DNA of 64,000 bases from Chitinophagales bacterium (GCA_044368655.1 JBIPPB010000003.1:2067-66066), one strand, 5' to 3'. Numbered from the stretch's first letter, positions 14,585 to 64,000 are shown. Notes: generated by a model not told the origin, from the sequence alone. Translations and numbers: made by a program.

Positions 14585-16852
14585 ATGCATTTTTTAGATG
14601 AACTAAACGCAATTCAATACGAAGCTGTTACTGAAATTCATGGCCCAATTATGATTAATGCCGGTCCAGGTTCTGGTAAAACGCGTGTTTTGACCTATCG
14701 AATAGCTTTTATGATGGAGCAAGGTATTGAGCCATTTAATATCTTGGCGCTTACGTTTACGAATAAAAGTAGTAAGGAAATGCGCGAACGTATCGAAAAG
14801 ATTGTAGGAAGCAAAGCAAGAAGTCTTTTTATGGGCACGTTTCACAGTGTTTTTGCTCGAATATTAAGAACAAAAGCGGAGGCTTTAGGGTACACCAATA
14901 ATTTTACAATATACGATACCGATGATGCCAAAAGTGTTTTAAAATCTATCGTTAAAGATTTTGCTTTAAATGATTCGATTTATAAACCAAATGTTCTTTA
15001 TAATCGTATTTCTAATTTAAAAAATAATCTAGTCAATTACAATATATATTCTAAAAATCAAGAACTGATTTATGAAGATGAAGAAGCGCATCGGCCTAAA
15101 TTTGGTGAAGTTTTTAAAGAATATACAAAAAGATGTATGAAAAATAATGCCATGGATTTTGATGATTTACTCATTAAATTCTATGAATTAATTCTGCGAT
15201 TTCCAGAAACACTTTATGAATTTCAACATAAGTTTCAATATATACTCATCGATGAGTTTCAGGATACCAATCGAGCACAGTATATGATTGTAAAAAAAAT
15301 TGCAGATGTGCATCAGAATATCTGTGTGGTTGGTGATGATAGCCAAAGTATTTATGCCTTTAGAGGCGCAAGTATTGATAATATTTTAAACTTCAAAAAA
15401 GATTATCCTGATTTAAAAGTTTTTAAATTAGAGCAAAATTATAGAAGTTCTCAAATTATTGTAGATGCAGCCAATGCGCTTATAAAACATAATAAAAATC
15501 AAATTGAAAAAACCATTTGGACCGAAAATGAAAAAGGTCAAGAAATCGCTGTAATGCGTGCTTTTTCAGATAATGATGAAGGAAAAATGGTGGTGGATAA
15601 AATTTTAGAACAATCTTTAACAAAGCAAATTAAGTATCAAGATATTGCCATTTTATATCGAACAAATAATCAATCGAGAAGCTTTGAAGAGGCGCTTCGT
15701 AGAAAAAATATTCCTTACATTATTTATGGAGGGCTCTCTTTTTATCAAAGAAAAGAAGTTAAAGATCTTTTGGCTTATTTAAAAGTAACGGTAAATCCTT
15801 ATGAAGAAGAATCGCTCAAACGAATTATAAATTATCCAATTCGTGGGATAGGAGATACAAGTGTTAATAAAATGCTTTTGTTTGCAAGGCAAGAAAACAA
15901 ACAATTATGGGACGTAGTATGTGAAATCGAAAAATACAAAGAGCATTTTCAAGCACGAGCTATTAATACGATTACAGAATTTAGAATGATGATTCAATCC
16001 TTTCATTTGCAGCAAGATATGAATGCACATGAATTGGCACATCACATCGCTAAAACTTCTAAAATTATTGGGGAATTATATGCCGATAAAAGTGTTGAAG
16101 GAATTAGTCGCTTTGAGAACTTGCAGGAATTAATCAATAGTATAAAAGAATTTGTTGAAAATGATGAAGTTATTGAAAATCAAGAATTAGAATCGGATAA
16201 ATCACTAGGGAGTTTTTTACAATCTGTTACGCTTTTGACGGATCAAGATAAAAACAAAGATAATGAAGAATGTATAAAATTGATGACGATTCATGCTTCT
16301 AAAGGTTTGGAGTTTAAAAGTGTATTTCTTGTTGGTATGGAAGAAAGGCTTTTTCCGAGTGAGCGTTCATCGTATTCCCTTGAAGACTTGGAAGAGGAAC
16401 GCCGTTTATTCTATGTAGCGGTAACCCGAGCCGAACGATTTCTTACGATGAGTTTTTCAACGTCAAGGTACAAATTTGGTAAAATAGATATGTGCGAACC
16501 TTCGCGATTTTTATCTGAATTGCCTAAAGAGATTTTAGACATTCAATTTACAACTTCAGAGCAAAATGAAACGACTTCAAATCCATCCAATCCAATTCTT
16601 AAGAATTATCAAAGAAATAATCAATTAGTCAATACGATAAAATCAACGAATAATATTCAGAAAATACCGACTGATTTTAAACCGGATCATCCTGATAAAC
16701 TCGAAGTTGGAATGCGCGTAATGCATCAAAATTTTGGTGAAGGAAATATCGTAGGCATTGATGGAGATGCCGATAAAAAAGTAGCTAGTATTATGTTTGG
16801 TGGAACGGAAAGACGTATAATGCTCAAATTTGCAAAATTGCAGATTCTATAA
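14585..16852 (+). CDS. pcrA: ATP-dependent DNA helicase UvrD/PcrA
   Basis: AGPGSGKT, LTFTNK, IDEFQDTN, LEQNYRS, MTIHASKGLEF, EEERRLFYVAVTRA; C-terminal Tudor-like domain. Confidence 0.95.
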   Translation: MHFLDELNAIQYEAVTEIHGPIMINAGPGSGKTRVLTYRIAFMMEQGIEPFNILALTFTNKSSKEMRERIEKIVGSKARSLFMGTFHSVFARILRTKAEALGYTNNFTIYDTDDAKSVLKSIVKDFALNDSIYKPNVLYNRISNLKNNLVNYNIYSKNQELIYEDEEAHRPKFGEVFKEYTKRCMKNNAMDFDDLLIKFYELILRFPETLYEFQHKFQYILIDEFQDTNRAQYMIVKKIADVHQNICVVGDDSQSIYAFRGASIDNILNFKKDYPDLKVFKLEQNYRSSQIIVDAANALIKHNKNQIEKTIWTENEKGQEIAVMRAFSDNDEGKMVVDKILEQSLTKQIKYQDIAILYRTNNQSRSFEEALRRKNIPYIIYGGLSFYQRKEVKDLLAYLKVTVNPYEEESLKRIINYPIRGIGDTSVNKMLLFARQENKQLWDVVCEIEKYKEHFQARAINTITEFRMMIQSFHLQQDMNAHELAHHIAKTSKIIGELYADKSVEGISRFENLQELINSIKEFVENDEVIENQELESDKSLGSFLQSVTLLTDQDKNKDNEECIKLMTIHASKGLEFKSVFLVGMEERLFPSERSSYSLEDLEEERRLFYVAVTRAERFLTMSFSTSRYKFGKIDMCEPSRFLSELPKEILDIQFTTSEQNETTSNPSNPILKNYQRNNQLVNTIKSTNNIQKIPTDFKPDHPDKLEVGMRVMHQNFGEGNIVGIDGDADKKVASIMFGGTERRIMLKFAKLQIL

Positions 16853-16855
16853 TTT

Positions 16856-18118
16856 TTACACACCTTTAATCCAAGACGATGGATTTTGTTTATTACTAAA
16901 ATGCCATATTTGAATATGTGTAAATGCATAGCCTAAATCGCTACTGTATGCACATTTGCCAATGTTTTGCCTTGCATTCACTTCGCTACCTATTGAAACA
17001 TTGACACTACTCAAATGCGAATACAAAGTAAAATAATCGCCATGTTTTACCAATACGCTGGTTTCATAATTTGGCATATCAAAAATTTGAACCACTTTGC
17101 CATTATACATACATAAAACATCGGCATTGTTTGAAGTTTTAATATCAATACCATTGTTTTCTATTATCAATTCAGGAGCTATGGGATGCGGTTGACGACC
17201 AAATCGTGAAACGACAACCCCTGTTTTAACAGGGAGCGGCAGAGATCCTTTACTACCTAGAAAGCTAGAACTTAATACAGCATTATGCGAGTTCGCATAA
17301 ATTTCCTCAACGGAAGATGGTTTTTTTGCCGATGGGTTATTTTTCCTTTTCTCTTCTATTTCTCTTTGTTTGGCAATATCTCGTTCCCTTTGTTTACGGA
17401 TTTCTTCCTCGATAACTTGCTTAATTCTATTATTTACATTAATCGCAGCTCTATTTTTCTCTGCAATTTTCTTTTTTAAATCTTCAAGTTCCGCGCCTAT
17501 ATTTTTAACCATCATATCGCGTTTATTTTTTTCCACTTCAAGCGCTACTTGATTTTGTTTATTCGATTCCACGACATTGGCTTTCTCTATTTTCGATTTC
17601 TTGAGTTCTTCAACCCGCTCTTGCATTCTTCCAATAATATTTTCTAAAATTTTAGTTTGTTTTTTTGTGTAGTTCGTATATTTTCGAATATATTTTATTC
17701 GATTCCATGCTTCTCTAAAGTTTGAAGATTCCAATAAAAATGCTAATTTGTTTGTATAATTATTTTCCAAATTTTTATACTGCCACAAAATGAGTTTGGT
17801 ATACTCTTTTTTATATAATTCGGCATCTTTTTTATTTTTATCAACTTCTTGTTCCCGATATCCAAGTTCTTTTTGTATAATTTGAAGTTGGTTTTCGGTG
17901 TTTTGAATAAGTTTTTTACGAGTTTCAATTTTTTGGTTAAAAACCTCTATCTCTTTTATACTTATATTTTGTAGCGCTTTTCTTTTTTTAATATCTGCTT
18001 CAAGTTGTCTAATTTCATTTTGTAGCGCTTTGTATTCTTTTTGTAACTTTTGTTTTTGAGATTGACCAAAAGTTACATTTATTATAAAAATTAAAAAAAG
18101 TAGGTGTAAGAATTTCAT
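16856..18118 (-). CDS. envC: Murein hydrolase activator EnvC family
   Basis: Signal peptide, long coiled coil, M23-like domain (NNGIDI, VLVKHGDYFTLYSHL). Confidence 0.85.
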   Translation of the reverse strand: MKFLHLLFLIFIINVTFGQSQKQKLQKEYKALQNEIRQLEADIKKRKALQNISIKEIEVFNQKIETRKKLIQNTENQLQIIQKELGYREQEVDKNKKDAELYKKEYTKLILWQYKNLENNYTNKLAFLLESSNFREAWNRIKYIRKYTNYTKKQTKILENIIGRMQERVEELKKSKIEKANVVESNKQNQVALEVEKNKRDMMVKNIGAELEDLKKKIAEKNRAAINVNNRIKQVIEEEIRKQRERDIAKQREIEEKRKNNPSAKKPSSVEEIYANSHNAVLSSSFLGSKGSLPLPVKTGVVVSRFGRQPHPIAPELIIENNGIDIKTSNNADVLCMYNGKVVQIFDMPNYETSVLVKHGDYFTLYSHLSSVNVSIGSEVNARQNIGKCAYSSDLGYAFTHIQIWHFSNKQNPSSWIKGV

Positions 18119-18783
18119 TATCTAGAAAAAGGCATATTTTGAGGGTTATTTAATTCAATTTTTTCAATATTAAAAATAATTTCCAAAGGATTTTCATTTT
18201 GCTTTACGATTTTTAATCTTCTATTGTAAGCCCAATTTTCTTTGTAATTAGGTATAGGTTTAAATGTTTCAATAAAACCTTCACAAAAGTTAAGAGACTC
18301 TTTGTTTAAAATCTGAAAGCTTTTTATTTGATTATTAGTGTCAAAAATAAATTTTCGATGAGTAAATGAATCCTCTGCAACGGATAAAGTGTCTTCTATT
18401 TCTTTACTTTTAAATATTTCGTTGACTTTGGTTTTATCACAATTAAAAAAAATATACTTAAAGTCATTGAAAGAAAGAGGAAAAGGAATATATTGATTTT
18501 CCGACTTAATATCCATCGCTTCAAAAATATTATCAATTTTATTTTTCAAAAAAATAGAATCTTTCATAATTAATAATCGGCCTCCTTCAATTCCCATAAA
18601 ACCGGTAAAAGACATCCAAATACTATCTTTAAGATTTGAACGAATTTGCGTCGAATATGTTTCTTTTTGACCCATATACGACACGGTCATTTCAGCTTTC
18701 ATTTTTATAAAATAAATAGAATCATTTCCAAAAATTGTATTTTGAAAGGAAATTAAAAATAGTAAAATGAATAACTTATTCAT
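18118..18783 (-). CDS. DUF4292 family protein
   Basis: DSIWMSF..FMGIEGGRLLI.KDSI motif; conserved TPR-DUF4292-envC order. Confidence 0.75.
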   Translation of the reverse strand: MNKLFILLFLISFQNTIFGNDSIYFIKMKAEMTVSYMGQKETYSTQIRSNLKDSIWMSFTGFMGIEGGRLLIMKDSIFLKNKIDNIFEAMDIKSENQYIPFPLSFNDFKYIFFNCDKTKVNEIFKSKEIEDTLSVAEDSFTHRKFIFDTNNQIKSFQILNKESLNFCEGFIETFKPIPNYKENWAYNRRLKIVKQNENPLEIIFNIEKIELNNPQNMPFSR

Positions 18784-60743: not shown

Positions 60744-61580
60744 ATGAGTACAATTACAGCACAAGATGTAAAAAAATTGAGAGATACTACCGGAGCCGGT
60801 ATGATGGATTGTAAAAAAGCGTTGACGGAATCTAATGGTGATTTTGATGCCGCAGTGGATTACTTGAGAAAAAAAGGAGCTAAAGTTGCGGAATTAAGAG
60901 CAGGTAGAGATGCTAATGAAGGTGTAGTTTATATTTTAACAAATAGCGCAAACAACTTCGGAATTATGGTTCAAGTAGGTTGTGAAACAGATTTCGTGGC
61001 TAAAAATGAATCATTTATTGAGTTTGTTAAATCTATCGCTACATTGGCTTTAGATAACAAAATCAAAACCACTGAAGATTTATTAGCTTCGGATTTAAAC
61101 GGTGTTTCAGTAACGGAGCGTATCAATGAAAAAGTAGGTTCGATTGGTGAAAATATTTCAATCCAAAGTTATCATGCTATCGAAGGTACTTATATCGCTA
61201 CGTATAATCATAATTTTAGAGCGGGTGTAATGGTCGCTTTAAATATGGACGGTAATGATACGGTTGCAGGTATTGGTAAAGACTTAGCTATGCAAATTGC
61301 AGCAATGAAACCCGTAGCTATTGACGAAACAAGTGTAAGTCAAGAGCAAAAAGATCGTGAAAAAGCAATTGCTAGAGATAAAGCGGCTGCTGAAGGTAAA
61401 CCTGAAAATATTTTAGATAAAATTGCAGAAGGCGCATTAACTAAATTCTACAAAGAGTTTACGCTTTTAAATCAAGATTATATCAAAGATACGAAAAAAA
61501 CAATTGCACAAGTTTTAAAAGAAACCAATGCAGATTTAAAAGTAACTTCTTTTGTTAGAACCGAATTAGGAACGAAATAA
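60744..61580 (+). CDS. tsf: Elongation factor Ts
   Basis: VKKLR..TGAGMMDCKKAL, CETDFVA, AMQIAAM.P. Confidence 0.98.
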   Translation: MSTITAQDVKKLRDTTGAGMMDCKKALTESNGDFDAAVDYLRKKGAKVAELRAGRDANEGVVYILTNSANNFGIMVQVGCETDFVAKNESFIEFVKSIATLALDNKIKTTEDLLASDLNGVSVTERINEKVGSIGENISIQSYHAIEGTYIATYNHNFRAGVMVALNMDGNDTVAGIGKDLAMQIAAMKPVAIDETSVSQEQKDREKAIARDKAAAEGKPENILDKIAEGALTKFYKEFTLLNQDYIKDTKKTIAQVLKETNADLKVTSFVRTELGTK

Positions 61581-61602
61581 TAAAAATAACTTTTTTTATA
61601 CT

Positions 61603-61630
61603 AAAGCCCGCAGTAATGCGGGCTTTTTTT
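61603..61630 (+). terminator. Terminator after tsf
   Basis: AAAGCCCGCA-gtaa-TGCGGGCTTT followed by a T-run. Confidence 0.93.
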
Positions 61631-61675
61631 GTTTAATTAATTTTAAGTAGCAAATATTTTAAATGCAATTTTATC

Positions 61676-61705
61676 TTGATTTTTTTGAAAAAATTGCTAT
61701 ATTTG
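61676..61705 (+). promoter_or_regulatory. Promoter heading the cassette-like region
   Basis: TTG (61676-78), 19-nt spacer, TATATTTG (61698-61705). Confidence 0.75.
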
Positions 61706-61790
61706 TTCCTATATAAAGTTGATATCTGACAGCTTTAGCAACGGCATATATAAATCAAAATTATTATCTAATTTAAGTAAACCAAATTTT

Positions 61791-62333
61791 ATGAAAAAAA
61801 TATTATTATTATTATTATTACTATCTGTAACTTGCATTGTAAACAGTATATATGGACAAAAAGATGAAAAGCTTGACACTATAATTAAGTTAAATGACGA
61901 AATTATTACTTGCAAAGTTACTAGCATAACTGAGAAAGAAGTAATTTACTCATTTCAAGGTGAAACTTTATCAAACTCTTTATCAAAAAATCAAATTAAA
62001 GAAATTCATTTAAGCAATGAAAGGGTTCAAAAGTTTTCAGAGCTAATTATTATAAAAGGAGAAGAAGATTGGGAAAAGGTTCAAATTACAAACATTGAAT
62101 CTGAAATATCAGGATTAGTTAAAAAAGGTGATGTTGCAGGAAAGGCAAATGCTGCAACCATATTTAGTTCAGTTGATGATATGAAACTCAAAGCAGAGAT
62201 GAAAATGAAGAAACATGCCGCTTCTATGGGCGCTCATATTATATTTATAAAATCAACTAATTCAACTCAAGCCGCTTATGGAATGAACACTGCAAAGGCA
62301 AATATAAGTGGTGTTGCTTTTGGTTATAAGTAA
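61791..62333 (+). CDS. Exported hypothetical protein (putative cassette gene 1)
   Basis: MKKILLLLLLL signal peptide at ATG 61791 (ORF track start 61719 is upstream of it); DTII..N...I.CKV..I N-domain; K.KK.AA.MGA.II C-domain. Confidence 0.8.
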   Translation: MKKILLLLLLLSVTCIVNSIYGQKDEKLDTIIKLNDEIITCKVTSITEKEVIYSFQGETLSNSLSKNQIKEIHLSNERVQKFSELIIIKGEEDWEKVQITNIESEISGLVKKGDVAGKANAATIFSSVDDMKLKAEMKMKKHAASMGAHIIFIKSTNSTQAAYGMNTAKANISGVAFGYK

Positions 62334-62353
62334 AGTAAGAAAGTTAAGAAAAT

Positions 62354-62495
62354 GCCGTCAGATATATACCGTATTTCTGAAAGTCGGGGTGACCGTATTT
62401 ATGTAAAAGTAATTAATATGTGAAAAATTGTGCCTTCTATTATATCTTTGTTTGGCGAAACTCGACCTTCAAAGAAATACGCGGGGAAGTTAGCC
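62354..62495 (+). mobile_element. attC-like imperfect palindrome (putative gene-cassette recombination site)
   Basis: Arms CGTATTTCTGAAAGTCGGGGT (62370-90) and ACTCGACCTTCAAAGAAATACG (62460-81); ends in GTTAGCC; left end is complementary to the GTT junction at 61718. Confidence 0.6.
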
Positions 62496-62541
62496 ATCAA
62501 TACAATAACGATATATTAAATATTCAAAAAATAAATAAAAT

Positions 62542-63147
62542 ATGAAATCAAAATTAAATATACTTTCGACGTTCTTTGTGGCGACATTTCTATTAAGTTT
62601 CGTTACAAAAAATGAAATTGGACAATGCTATATTTCATTTGATACTGCAACAAATTTGATAGTAACAGACCCTGACAGGCTCCCTGAAGCTTCTGAAAAA
62701 GTTAGAACTGTAATAACGGATAACGGAGAAATAGAAGTTACTCGAATTGACGGCTATAGAGTTTTATATAACAATGAAAATAAAGTGCCTTTTGTTGATT
62801 TGAAAATTGAACTATCAGAAGAAAAATCCTACGAAAAAGACAAACAAAATCTTCTAGAAAATTTGAAATATATAAATTCAAATTCACAGAATATGGAAAC
62901 TAAAGACTTAATCAAACTTGAATTTAATGGGTATAAAATTTATGGGTTTAGTAGAACGACAATTGAAAAAGGAAGTATATTGGTTACGTTTGTTATGTTT
63001 CCAGGTAATGGGGTAACAGTTTATTTCTATTTTAACAATATGAAACAAGAATTCAGAAATTTTGAAAGCGTTGACGATTACAAAAAACAACGCGATAGAT
63101 TTATAATCGAATATACTAATCATTTAAAAACGTGTAAAGACAAATAA
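62542..63147 (+). CDS. Exported hypothetical protein (putative cassette gene 2)
   Basis: N-terminal signal-like segment; starts 53 nt after the GTT of the attC-like site. Confidence 0.75.
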   Translation: MKSKLNILSTFFVATFLLSFVTKNEIGQCYISFDTATNLIVTDPDRLPEASEKVRTVITDNGEIEVTRIDGYRVLYNNENKVPFVDLKIELSEEKSYEKDKQNLLENLKYINSNSQNMETKDLIKLEFNGYKIYGFSRTTIEKGSILVTFVMFPGNGVTVYFYFNNMKQEFRNFESVDDYKKQRDRFIIEYTNHLKTCKDK

Positions 63148-63228
63148 GTTTATACGTCTTAGCTCGCACCTCAATAACCGAAATATTTTAATTAATATAT
63201 TTTAATATACGTTGTAACTAAAAAAAAA

Positions 63229-63260
63229 GTTCTTGATATGGGAACATTTTTGTAATTTTG
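63229..63260 (+). promoter_or_regulatory. higBA promoter with palindromic operator
   Basis: GTTCTTGATATGGGAAC imperfect palindrome (63229-45) just upstream of TAATTTTG (63253-60). Confidence 0.65.
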
Positions 63261-63278
63261 CAAAAATATTAATAGCGC

Positions 63279-63575
63279 GTGGAACGAATTTTTTCTAAAA
63301 GTACATTAAGAGCATTTTGGGAAATTCATGCGGAAGCTGAGCAATATTTAAAAACGTGGTACGAAACGGTGAAAAATGCTGATTGGAAAACACCAACAGA
63401 TGTAAAGCAGACGTATGCAAATGCAAGTATTTTAAAAAATAACCGTATCGTATTTAATATAAAAGGAAATTCTTATAGATTAATTGCGAAGTTTAATTTT
63501 GAAAAACAATGGTTATTTATAAGATTTATCGGAACTCACAATGAATATGATAAAATTGATGCAAACACAATTTAA
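63279..63575 (+). CDS. higB: Type II toxin HigB
   Basis: RI.S..TL..FW..H, L..WY, VFNIKGN.YRLI, RFIGTH.EYDKI. Confidence 0.93.
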   Translation: MERIFSKSTLRAFWEIHAEAEQYLKTWYETVKNADWKTPTDVKQTYANASILKNNRIVFNIKGNSYRLIAKFNFEKQWLFIRFIGTHNEYDKIDANTI

Positions 63576-63586
63576 AAATTATTGAA

Positions 63587-63955
63587 ATGAATATTAAACT
63601 CATAAAAACAGAAGCGGATTACCGCAACGCATTAGAAAGATTAGACGAAATTTTCGATGCAAAAATTGGAACACACGAAAGTGATGAAGCCGATATATTA
63701 GCCTTGTTGATAGATGCGTATGAGAAAAAAAATTATGCGATTGAGTCACCTGACCCTATAGAAGCCATAAAAATTAGAATGGAAGAAATGGAACTAAAAC
63801 AACTTGATTTAGTTGATATTATTGGAGGGAAGAGCCGTGTATCTGAAGTATTAAATAAAAAAAGAAAACTTACCGTAGAAATGATTCGAAATCTGAAAAA
63901 TCGTTTAAATTTGTCAACGGATATTTTAATTACAGATTATAAATTAATAAGATAA
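63587..63955 (+). CDS. higA: Type II antitoxin HigA
   Basis: IKTEADY..AL, PDPIEAIK.RME, SRVSEVLN.KR.LT..MIR helix-turn-helix. Confidence 0.93.
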   Translation: MNIKLIKTEADYRNALERLDEIFDAKIGTHESDEADILALLIDAYEKKNYAIESPDPIEAIKIRMEEMELKQLDLVDIIGGKSRVSEVLNKKRKLTVEMIRNLKNRLNLSTDILITDYKLIR

Positions 63956-64000
63956 AAAAATAGGGACTCTAATAGTCGTTTCTATTTAATTCCTTTTTCT

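Follow-up and report, generated by a model that had tools for sequence, protein, structure and literature searches.

An attC-like hairpin site behind tsf of a Chitinophagales bacterium and its family of cassette arrays with linked tyrosine recombinases in a Bacteroidota-like phylum

Integron cassettes, whether of classes 1-5 or of the sedentary chromosomal integrons, depend on the integrase IntI and carry after each open reading frame (ORF) an imperfect hairpin site (attC) of about 60-140 nt, whose ends, ...AAC and GTT..., are conserved and whose structure is kept by covariation rather than by sequence. They stand in co-oriented arrays; the crossover falls after the G of GTT and the first bases of a cassette pair with its own 5' box, the insertion point adjoins the recombinase gene, and the cassettes include toxin-antitoxin genes as well as small genes of unknown function. 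All of these traits are shared by a family of sites that we describe here starting from a window of 64,000 nt (the whole stretch of DNA analysed, to which all positions without a contig name refer) of a Chitinophagales bacterium (GCA_044368655.1, JBIPPB010000003.1:2067-66066). In this window, a hairpin element at 62354-62495 lies behind tsf, the gene of elongation factor Ts; its 5' box has TAC, and its left flank is unlike the junctions beside the recombinase genes of the family. Several traits set the family apart from integrons: the recombinase lacks the IntI-specific insert and has an extra N-terminal domain in one to three copies, the spacer of the sites is, by eye, lopsided (1-2 nt on the 5' side versus about 5 nt on the 3' side), the boxed pairing reaches about 9 nt or more, many loops hold a promoter-like motif and some cassettes comprise several genes.

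Integrons are defined by IntI, and their apparent near-absence from Bacteroidota is treated as a fact of distribution in the accessible text of PMC9024848, where only In0 elements and one Salinibacter integron are reported for Bacteroidetes. The integrons of Archaea, according to the available part of Ghaly et al. 2022, resemble the family described here in that arrays outside the classical host range were found via the structure of their sites; the archaeal integrases keep the IntI-specific additional domain, unlike our family recombinases. A CALIN, in which attC sites are grouped together with no integron integrase present, is defined, in the accessible portion of Cury et al. 2016, by two or more such sites within 4 kb and no integrase. 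The window and many arrays of the family likewise carry site-bearing cassette DNA without an integrase in the examined stretch, but CALINs are defined by the canonical attC model, whereas the site of the window was called with our own models and is the only one there, so that the term CALIN, mentioned in a first-pass annotation of this DNA, does not apply to the window. In the literature searched, neither arrays of this kind nor an integrase without the insert had been described for this phylum; supplements and subscription papers lay outside the search, and a prior description is possible.

The site and its probable cassette behind tsf

The motifs, the junction, ORF1, the hairpin, the GTTAGCC and ORF2 of the first-pass annotation were all recovered at their coordinates by direct reading. 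The left cassette junction at 61718-61733 (plus strand, as are all features of the window named below) reads GTTGATATCTGACAGC, that is, the G of the recipient followed by the first bases of the cassette (G|TTGATATCTGACAGC), and the 5' end box of the site at 62354-62369, GCCGTCAGATATATAC, starts 20 nt after the stop codon of ORF1. As had been noticed, the former is a near reverse complement of the latter: the two 16-mers are complementary at 13 of 16 positions, a value reached only once when the upstream stretch of 773 nt was resampled 3000 times with a Markov model. Across the locus, the genome of the closest relative, G002, shows 94-96% identity and has the same block of ORF1, hairpin, ORF2 and higBA; its upstream 16-mer, GTATATATCTGACAGC, is complementary at 15 of 16 positions, which none of 3000 resamples reached, and its left junction and 5' box read G|TATATATCTGACAGC and ...GATATATAC, respectively. 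The inverted repeat of the window is far beyond chance.

Behind the 5' box, the site consists of a 5' stem arm (62370-62389), a loop (62390-62460), a 3' stem arm (62461-62481), an unpaired CGGGGAA (62482-62488) and the 3' box GTTAGCC (62489-62495). Its assignment as an attC-type recombination site (62354-62495) is based on family membership and on matches to covariance models, of which R3, built exclusively on sites from outside the genus (see below), matched 62356-62499 with 46.9 bits and an E-value of 4.2e-9. This was the sole hit in a filter-off scan of the 64 kb, with a runner-up at 14.7 bits, and the word "array" of the first-pass annotation was therefore given up for the window itself. 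R2 scored the same site at 95.4 bits. Rfam, searched with 61000-64000 at E-values up to 10, gave no match on the hairpin and terminator-type near-hits at the terminator of tsf. The element belongs, as a single copy, to a phylum-wide family of attC-like hairpin sites, and we regard it as likely that, together with ORF1, it once formed a circular cassette which was inserted behind tsf. The limits of this putative 771-nt cassette, 61719-62489, starting at the base that follows the junction G and ending with the G of GTT, follow from the junction rule of the arrays (see below) and from the complementarity of the window's own ends. ORF1 (61791-62333) encodes 180 aa with a hydrophobic N-terminus, is secreted or lipoprotein-like, and matches DUF4156 (PF13698) weakly, with 22.7 bits under a cut-off of 28.9.

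A covarying site family and its cassette arrays

The genome of the window, G000, measures 2.5 Mb in 173 contigs at 32.6% G+C. A blastn-short search of this genome with the intergenic DNA of the locus revealed no second copy of the hairpin. The covariance model R3 found 12 sites in it, 5 of them adjoining a recombinase gene on contig C148, and the family as a whole stands in ORF-site-ORF rows. The first clue to this family was a second hairpin on another contig of G002, 75% identical and with a compensatory change in the stem. Sites were called with three covariance models of our own rather than with the curated attC model of IntegronFinder. R1, built on three copies, matched 28 times (E <= 0.1) among 15 family-level genomes, 6 of which had at least one match, and several matches stood in rows of ORF, site and ORF on one strand; R2, built on 27 sites, extended the family to 84 of 151 order-level genomes (43 of 83 genera); and R3, built on 84 sites from 16 genomes, all outside the genus of G000, found them in 73 of 151 phylum-level genomes (48 of 89 genera, other classes included). 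We group the family under a Bacteroidota-like phylum.

A family site is about 140 nt long, ends in ...TAAC on its 5' side and in CGG[AG]CGTTA... on its 3' side, and has arms that vary in sequence and keep their complementarity. Over 90 sites, 85.5% of the stem cells were paired, compared to 62.9% in shuffles (none of 500 reached the observed value) and 33-45% in slid controls; cells with a double change numbered 398 versus 121 in the shuffles, and 20 of 24 stem pairs showed changes on both sides. The stem of the family is under selection. A search of Rfam with 45.8 kb of arrays (E up to 1) returned only one chance miRNA hit.

The anatomy of the arrays was assessed on 147 distinct sites from 70 loci, none of which had sites on both strands. 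The median spacing of the sites was 988 nt, and the end of a same-strand ORF lay at most 60 nt upstream of 97 sites. For 99 of the 147 sites the bottom strand was the more stable one, by a mean of 1.39 kcal/mol, a weak hint that the sites might fold as single (bottom) strands. The loop held a TAnnTTTG motif, which we take to be the -7 promoter motif of this phylum, on the top strand of 47 sites and on the bottom strand of 3, against a shuffle mean of 7.9; the sites may thus carry promoters for the downstream cassette. At the corresponding position, 62443-62450, the loop of the window has TATCTTTG. One locus, L128 (G127:C5:8000-27999), contains runs of sites about 305 nt apart, e.g. at 16419-18395, separated by units of about 170 nt that are too short for a gene and are mini-cassettes or tandem duplications of the site.

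The cassette signature of the arrays was examined in 38 consecutive same-strand site pairs, by taking the 9 nt that follow the GTT of one site, reverse-complementing them and comparing them with the 9 nt before the AAC of the next site. In 32 pairs, 7-8 positions matched, and the mean over all pairs was 6.87, compared to 3.89 for the site's own 3' box as control and to 3.21 +/- 1.43 for unrelated sites (n=7712, of which 75 reached at least 7). Since the bases after the G pair with the site of the downstream gene, they travel with that gene, as if the unit had once been a circle. The window follows this rule across 16 nt, with the 13 matches in G000 and 15 in G002 given above, and the proposal of the first-pass annotation that ORF1 and its site came from one circular cassette gained support both from the window's own ends and from the arrays. 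A further instance is a three-gene cassette, encoding a 126-aa Cys-rich protein, a DUF3347 protein and a multicopper oxidase, that is 99% identical over 2034 nt between G000 (C148:5949-9880) and G002 (contig C7; locus L013, 1970-4000), with the same start after the G and different left flanks. The recombinases of the two genomes are only 69% identical despite this near-identity, and the G002 copy is part of another cassette row, where an attI-like flank precedes it, at a great distance from the recombinase gene of that genome. The cargo of the array of G000 comprises copper-oxidase, serine-hydrolase (PF00144) and glyoxalase-family genes; the cassette at C148:4469-5890 of its main array encodes a 472-aa serine hydrolase of PF00144 (beta-lactamase family) with a type IX secretion sorting tail.

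Recombinases at the head of the arrays

The window itself is devoid of an integrase, as the first-pass annotation had stated (best tblastn E-value 0.74), and a profile search of G000 found no IntI-type integrase above cut-off. The IntI-like tyrosine recombinase that had been suspected elsewhere in the genome has a counterpart in a divergent gene at C148:10066-11148 beside the row of five sites, which encodes 360 aa, is the best IntI-like gene of G000 and the only candidate recombinase there. Its best profile match was NF040815 ("XerA / integron integrase") with 210.4 bits at a cut-off of 220, followed by TIGR02249 (integron integrase; 189.6 bits, cut-off 265), XerC (173.6 bits), XerD (166.6 bits) and NF011946 (127.2 bits, cut-off 435). 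When aligned to VchIntIA, the protein matches on either side of the IntI-specific insert and is about 43 residues short between the two blocks; likewise, the alignment to 2a3v omits residues 184-247 of that chain against residues 263-283 of the query. Its predicted structure (pLDDT 78.7) shows no extra helix at the position of the insert and a small N-terminal alpha/beta domain, and the nearest solved folds are an archaeal Xer (4a8e, best, with 32% identity), VchIntIA and XerA. The family recombinase thus lacks the additional domain near patch III that distinguishes a canonical IntI. Ten homologs linked to arrays all retain the catalytic Arg, Lys, His-x-x-Arg and Tyr, and 9 of them the catalytic His as well. 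An alignment of the C148 protein with nine homologs (A7) delimits an N-terminal domain of about 50-60 residues with the order beta-beta-alpha-beta-beta-alpha, a WS...W motif and no Pfam match, which occurs in one to three copies, with two or three in recombinase forms of about 540-580 aa.

Homologs of this recombinase were found at the upstream end of the array at 8 of 26 loci (L106, L107, L108, L124, L126 and L127, with fragments at L110 and L121), and likewise upstream in six genomes of other classes (G171:C30, G221:C56, G265:C1, G161:C1, G164:C17 and G189:C38). In all eight platforms of recombinase gene and first cassette, the 5' box of the first site has a complement at a distance of 110-245 nt from that gene, with 12-13 of 14 matches compared to 8-10 for the second-best position; this junction is an attI-like insertion point. 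The family accordingly shares with integrons the AAC...GTT hairpin sites, the complementarity at the G|TT crossover and an attI-type point beside the recombinase gene. Its recombinase resembles Xer enzymes, in that XerA/integron integrase is the top profile and an archaeal Xer comes closest among solved structures. The targets of Xer enzymes are short double-stranded dif-type sites, whereas the sites of the family are covarying hairpins of about 140 nt in cassette arrays. The term "integron-like" of the first-pass annotation hence suits the cassette logic, and a canonical integron is not what we find, as the linked recombinase is without the IntI-specific insert.

These results describe an abundant system that appears to function like an integron, yet lacks the defining domain of IntI, and that is apparently undescribed. 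Whether it amounts to a second phylum-wide kind of integron, present in about half of the sampled genomes, with a Xer/XerA-like integrase devoid of the IntI domain, a new N-terminal domain and sites of about 140 nt with a lopsided spacer, coexisting with canonical integrons in some genomes, is a question on which we see the balance as even. Such a system would be invisible to standard integron search tools and, as its sites would often have a promoter of their own, its cassettes would not need to rely on a single array promoter. If the arrays are served by an insert-less Xer-like enzyme, cassettes came to be captured, or went on being captured, at folded sites in the absence of the IntI domain, a point of direct relevance to the origin of integrons from Xer recombinases; large pools of mobile cassettes would have been overlooked in a major environmental and host-associated phylum, and surveys of cassette genes would have missed a whole compartment. 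The result for the window itself is modest, in that one lineage-specific gene behind tsf is explained as a fossil cassette.

Another tyrosine recombinase gene, 4 kb from a site in G003 (contig C134; locus L064, 2302-4427), was not retained as a candidate; it lies beside split IS91-like transposase ORFs and a GIY-YIG-like small ORF, and is probably a separate mobile element unrelated to the sites.

Alternative explanations and the probable history of the locus

An ordinary integron remnant, that is, a canonical attC whose own canonical IntI, additional domain included, has since been lost, would also account for the resemblance of the site ends to the AAC/GTT boxes of attC and for the identical cassette logic. 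Integrons are reported in Bacteroidota in the available parts of PMC9024848 and PMC8618304, and the phylum sample contains canonical integron integrases well above the cut-off of 265 bits (G171:C32:98850-99788, 432.8 bits; G161:C5:61111-62052, 429.7 bits; G208:C287:1537-2478, 452.5 bits; G037:C40:3592-4530, 421.9 bits). We nevertheless consider this explanation improbable. Canonical IntI exceeded the cut-off in only 1 of the 151 order-level genomes, against 84 with sites, and that genome, G037, is without family sites. G171, G161 and G208 possess both a canonical IntI and the insert-less system, so that two cassette systems may coexist in some genomes; in G171 and G161 it is the insert-less recombinase that stands at the head of the arrays, while the canonical IntI is encoded on a different contig, and no R3 site lies within about 1.5 kb of three canonical intI loci. 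Moreover, it is the junction beside the insert-less gene that fits the first cassette in all eight platforms. The accessible text of the IntegronFinder 2.0 paper (PMC9024848), with its In0 elements and single Salinibacter integron, would be odd if the attC model of that program detected these sites.

An RNA stem would fit the covariation just as well and, given that the site is always 3' of an ORF and that the loop motif is biased to the top strand, the hairpin could be read as a structured RNA or transcription module, serving as 3' stabiliser or terminator of ORF1 and as promoter of ORF2, with the repeat pairing the untranslated regions of the ORF1 mRNA. Such a role would leave unexplained why the bases after GTT fit the 5' box of the next site and not of their own, why a matching junction is found by the recombinase gene in eight of eight platforms, and why a 99% identical cassette is found behind different left flanks; in addition, no T-run follows the stem of the window and no Rfam family matched the 45.8 kb of arrays beyond one chance hit, which makes this role very improbable. 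Hardly credible is the third explanation, an inverton that flips ORF1 relative to its promoter. Invertons are common in this phylum, and a beyond-chance inverted repeat does flank a segment of 614 nt directly behind the promoter, but the cassette rule, which holds in 32 of 38 other pairs, accounts for the repeat completely, an inversion would set the promoter antisense to ORF1, and there is no recombinase gene near the repeat. The contigs of four sequencing runs contained no strand-changing joint at 61718-62369, although contigs can miss rare forms.

Several observations weigh against the cassette reading, which we prefer. With regard to the enzyme, no recombinase was seen in the examined stretch at 18 of the 26 array loci, many of which are cut by contig ends, and the site-rich genomes G005 and G010 are without a close recombinase homolog; the arrays seem to outlive or travel without their enzyme, in a CALIN-like manner. 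According to the accessible text of PMC8138268, the IntI insert is essential for attC recombination and integron function, and the same text states that it is not conserved across the whole "integron-like" subgroup. With regard to the window, there is a single site, R3 scores it near the bottom of the 12 sites of G000, its 5' box has TAC instead of AAC, and the usual spacer of 1-2 nt is absent. The hairpin folds no more stably than shuffles (z = +0.93 as RNA and -0.62 as bottom-strand DNA), and its minimum-energy DNA fold is without the long stem; the element is distinguished by family membership and covariation, not by free energy. No site was found at 10 loci of the order-level sample that have homologs of ORF1, nor at L150 and L151, where these homologs are 50-51% identical; more generally, no site was found near homologs of ORF1, ORF2 or higBA at 12 loci and at L150-L152. 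The left flank reached a position weight matrix (PWM) score of -2.46, and 17.7% of 83,812 GTT positions score as high; because it is unlike the recombinase-side junctions, the simplest reading is that a secondary G|T site behind a promoter received the insertion. Finally, neither an empty-site or excised form nor a joint at 61718/62489 was found in the contigs of four sequencing runs, in which rare variants are dropped; the block of ORF1, site, ORF2 and higBA was intact in these contigs. A joint 62530-63569 in run X7 was discarded, as one of its sides comprised only 20 letters.

The cassette reading suggests the following history. ORF1 and its site would have existed as a circular cassette of 771 nt, whose site was cut by a tyrosine recombinase after the G of the 3' box, and which was then joined to DNA at a G|T that lies 138 nt behind tsf, shortly after the promoter and ahead of ORF2. 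From then on, ORF1 would have been expressed from the promoter at 61676-61705. The candidate for this recombinase, located outside the window, is the C148 enzyme that heads the array of five sites. The right junction, G|TTAGCCATC..., runs into ORF2, and the uninserted joint of tsf, promoter and ORF2 without ORF1 is predicted to have read ...TATATAAAG|TTAGCCATC. As the box of G002 has TAC with GTA, that of the window can be understood as a TAC/GTA variant of AAC/GTT, and the GTT at the left junction of G000 would have arisen by two later changes. Two claims of the first-pass annotation are modified hereby: the junction was correctly placed, while its G|TT is derived, given the G|TA of G002 that matches the TAC of the site; and the 5' end indeed departs from AAC, as a co-varying variant rather than as a simply degenerate sequence. 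The solitary cassette is old enough to be common to G000 and G002 and recurs in contigs of other runs; it looks fixed, and is most likely an insertion that would no longer be mobile. A comparison of the region downstream of tsf across relatives showed the block in G002; in nine other congeners, whose tsf products are 67-80% identical, other genes follow tsf, and none provides a usable empty site.

The distribution of ORF1 is patchy (14 of the 151 genomes), with homologs in records titled as metagenome-assembled genomes of Chitinophagaceae, Chitinophagales, Bacteroidetes and Flavobacteriaceae. Upstream of the insertion, the conserved tsf (60744-61580, ORF call) is followed by an intrinsic terminator (61603-61626 or, more widely delimited, 61603-61633; a 10-bp stem with 6 GC pairs and then a T-run) and by a promoter-like site (61676-61705; TTG, 19 nt, TATATTTG), in the order described in the first-pass annotation. 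We take the latter to be a promoter of the Bacteroidetes -33/-7 type; 61676-61703 can also be read as TTGATT-16-TATATT. To the right of the cassette, ORF2 (62542-63147) encodes 201 aa with an N-terminal hydrophobic segment, belongs to no family, has homologs in 3 of the 151 genomes, and is probably the gene that stood behind the promoter before the insertion. It had been proposed to be a second cassette that lost its attC, which we abandoned, as no complement of the start of this unit was found downstream; the best match for a 5' box was only 10 of 14 and AT-rich. ORF2 is followed by a higB-like toxin gene (63279-63575; PF09907, 118.5 bits) and, directly behind it, a helix-turn-helix (HTH) antitoxin gene (63587-63955). 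The filter-off R3 scan of the 64-kb window detected no site near this pair that would make it a cassette, and homologs of the pair at 60-71% protein identity are found in G016 (L012), neither copy being flanked by a site.

The promoter region of G002 (contig C22) contains an additional gene between tsf and the ORF1 promoter (L002, 640-1527, corresponding to 61667-61693 of the window), which encodes a 220-aa TPR lipoprotein. The -33/spacer part of the promoter stands on either side of this gene as a direct repeat of 27 nt, each copy of which is followed by its own TAnnTTTG. Contigs of two further runs carry the extra gene as well, and in runs X3 and X7 the contigs break at this very position. 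Its gain or loss looks like recombination between the duplicated promoters and not between cassette sites.

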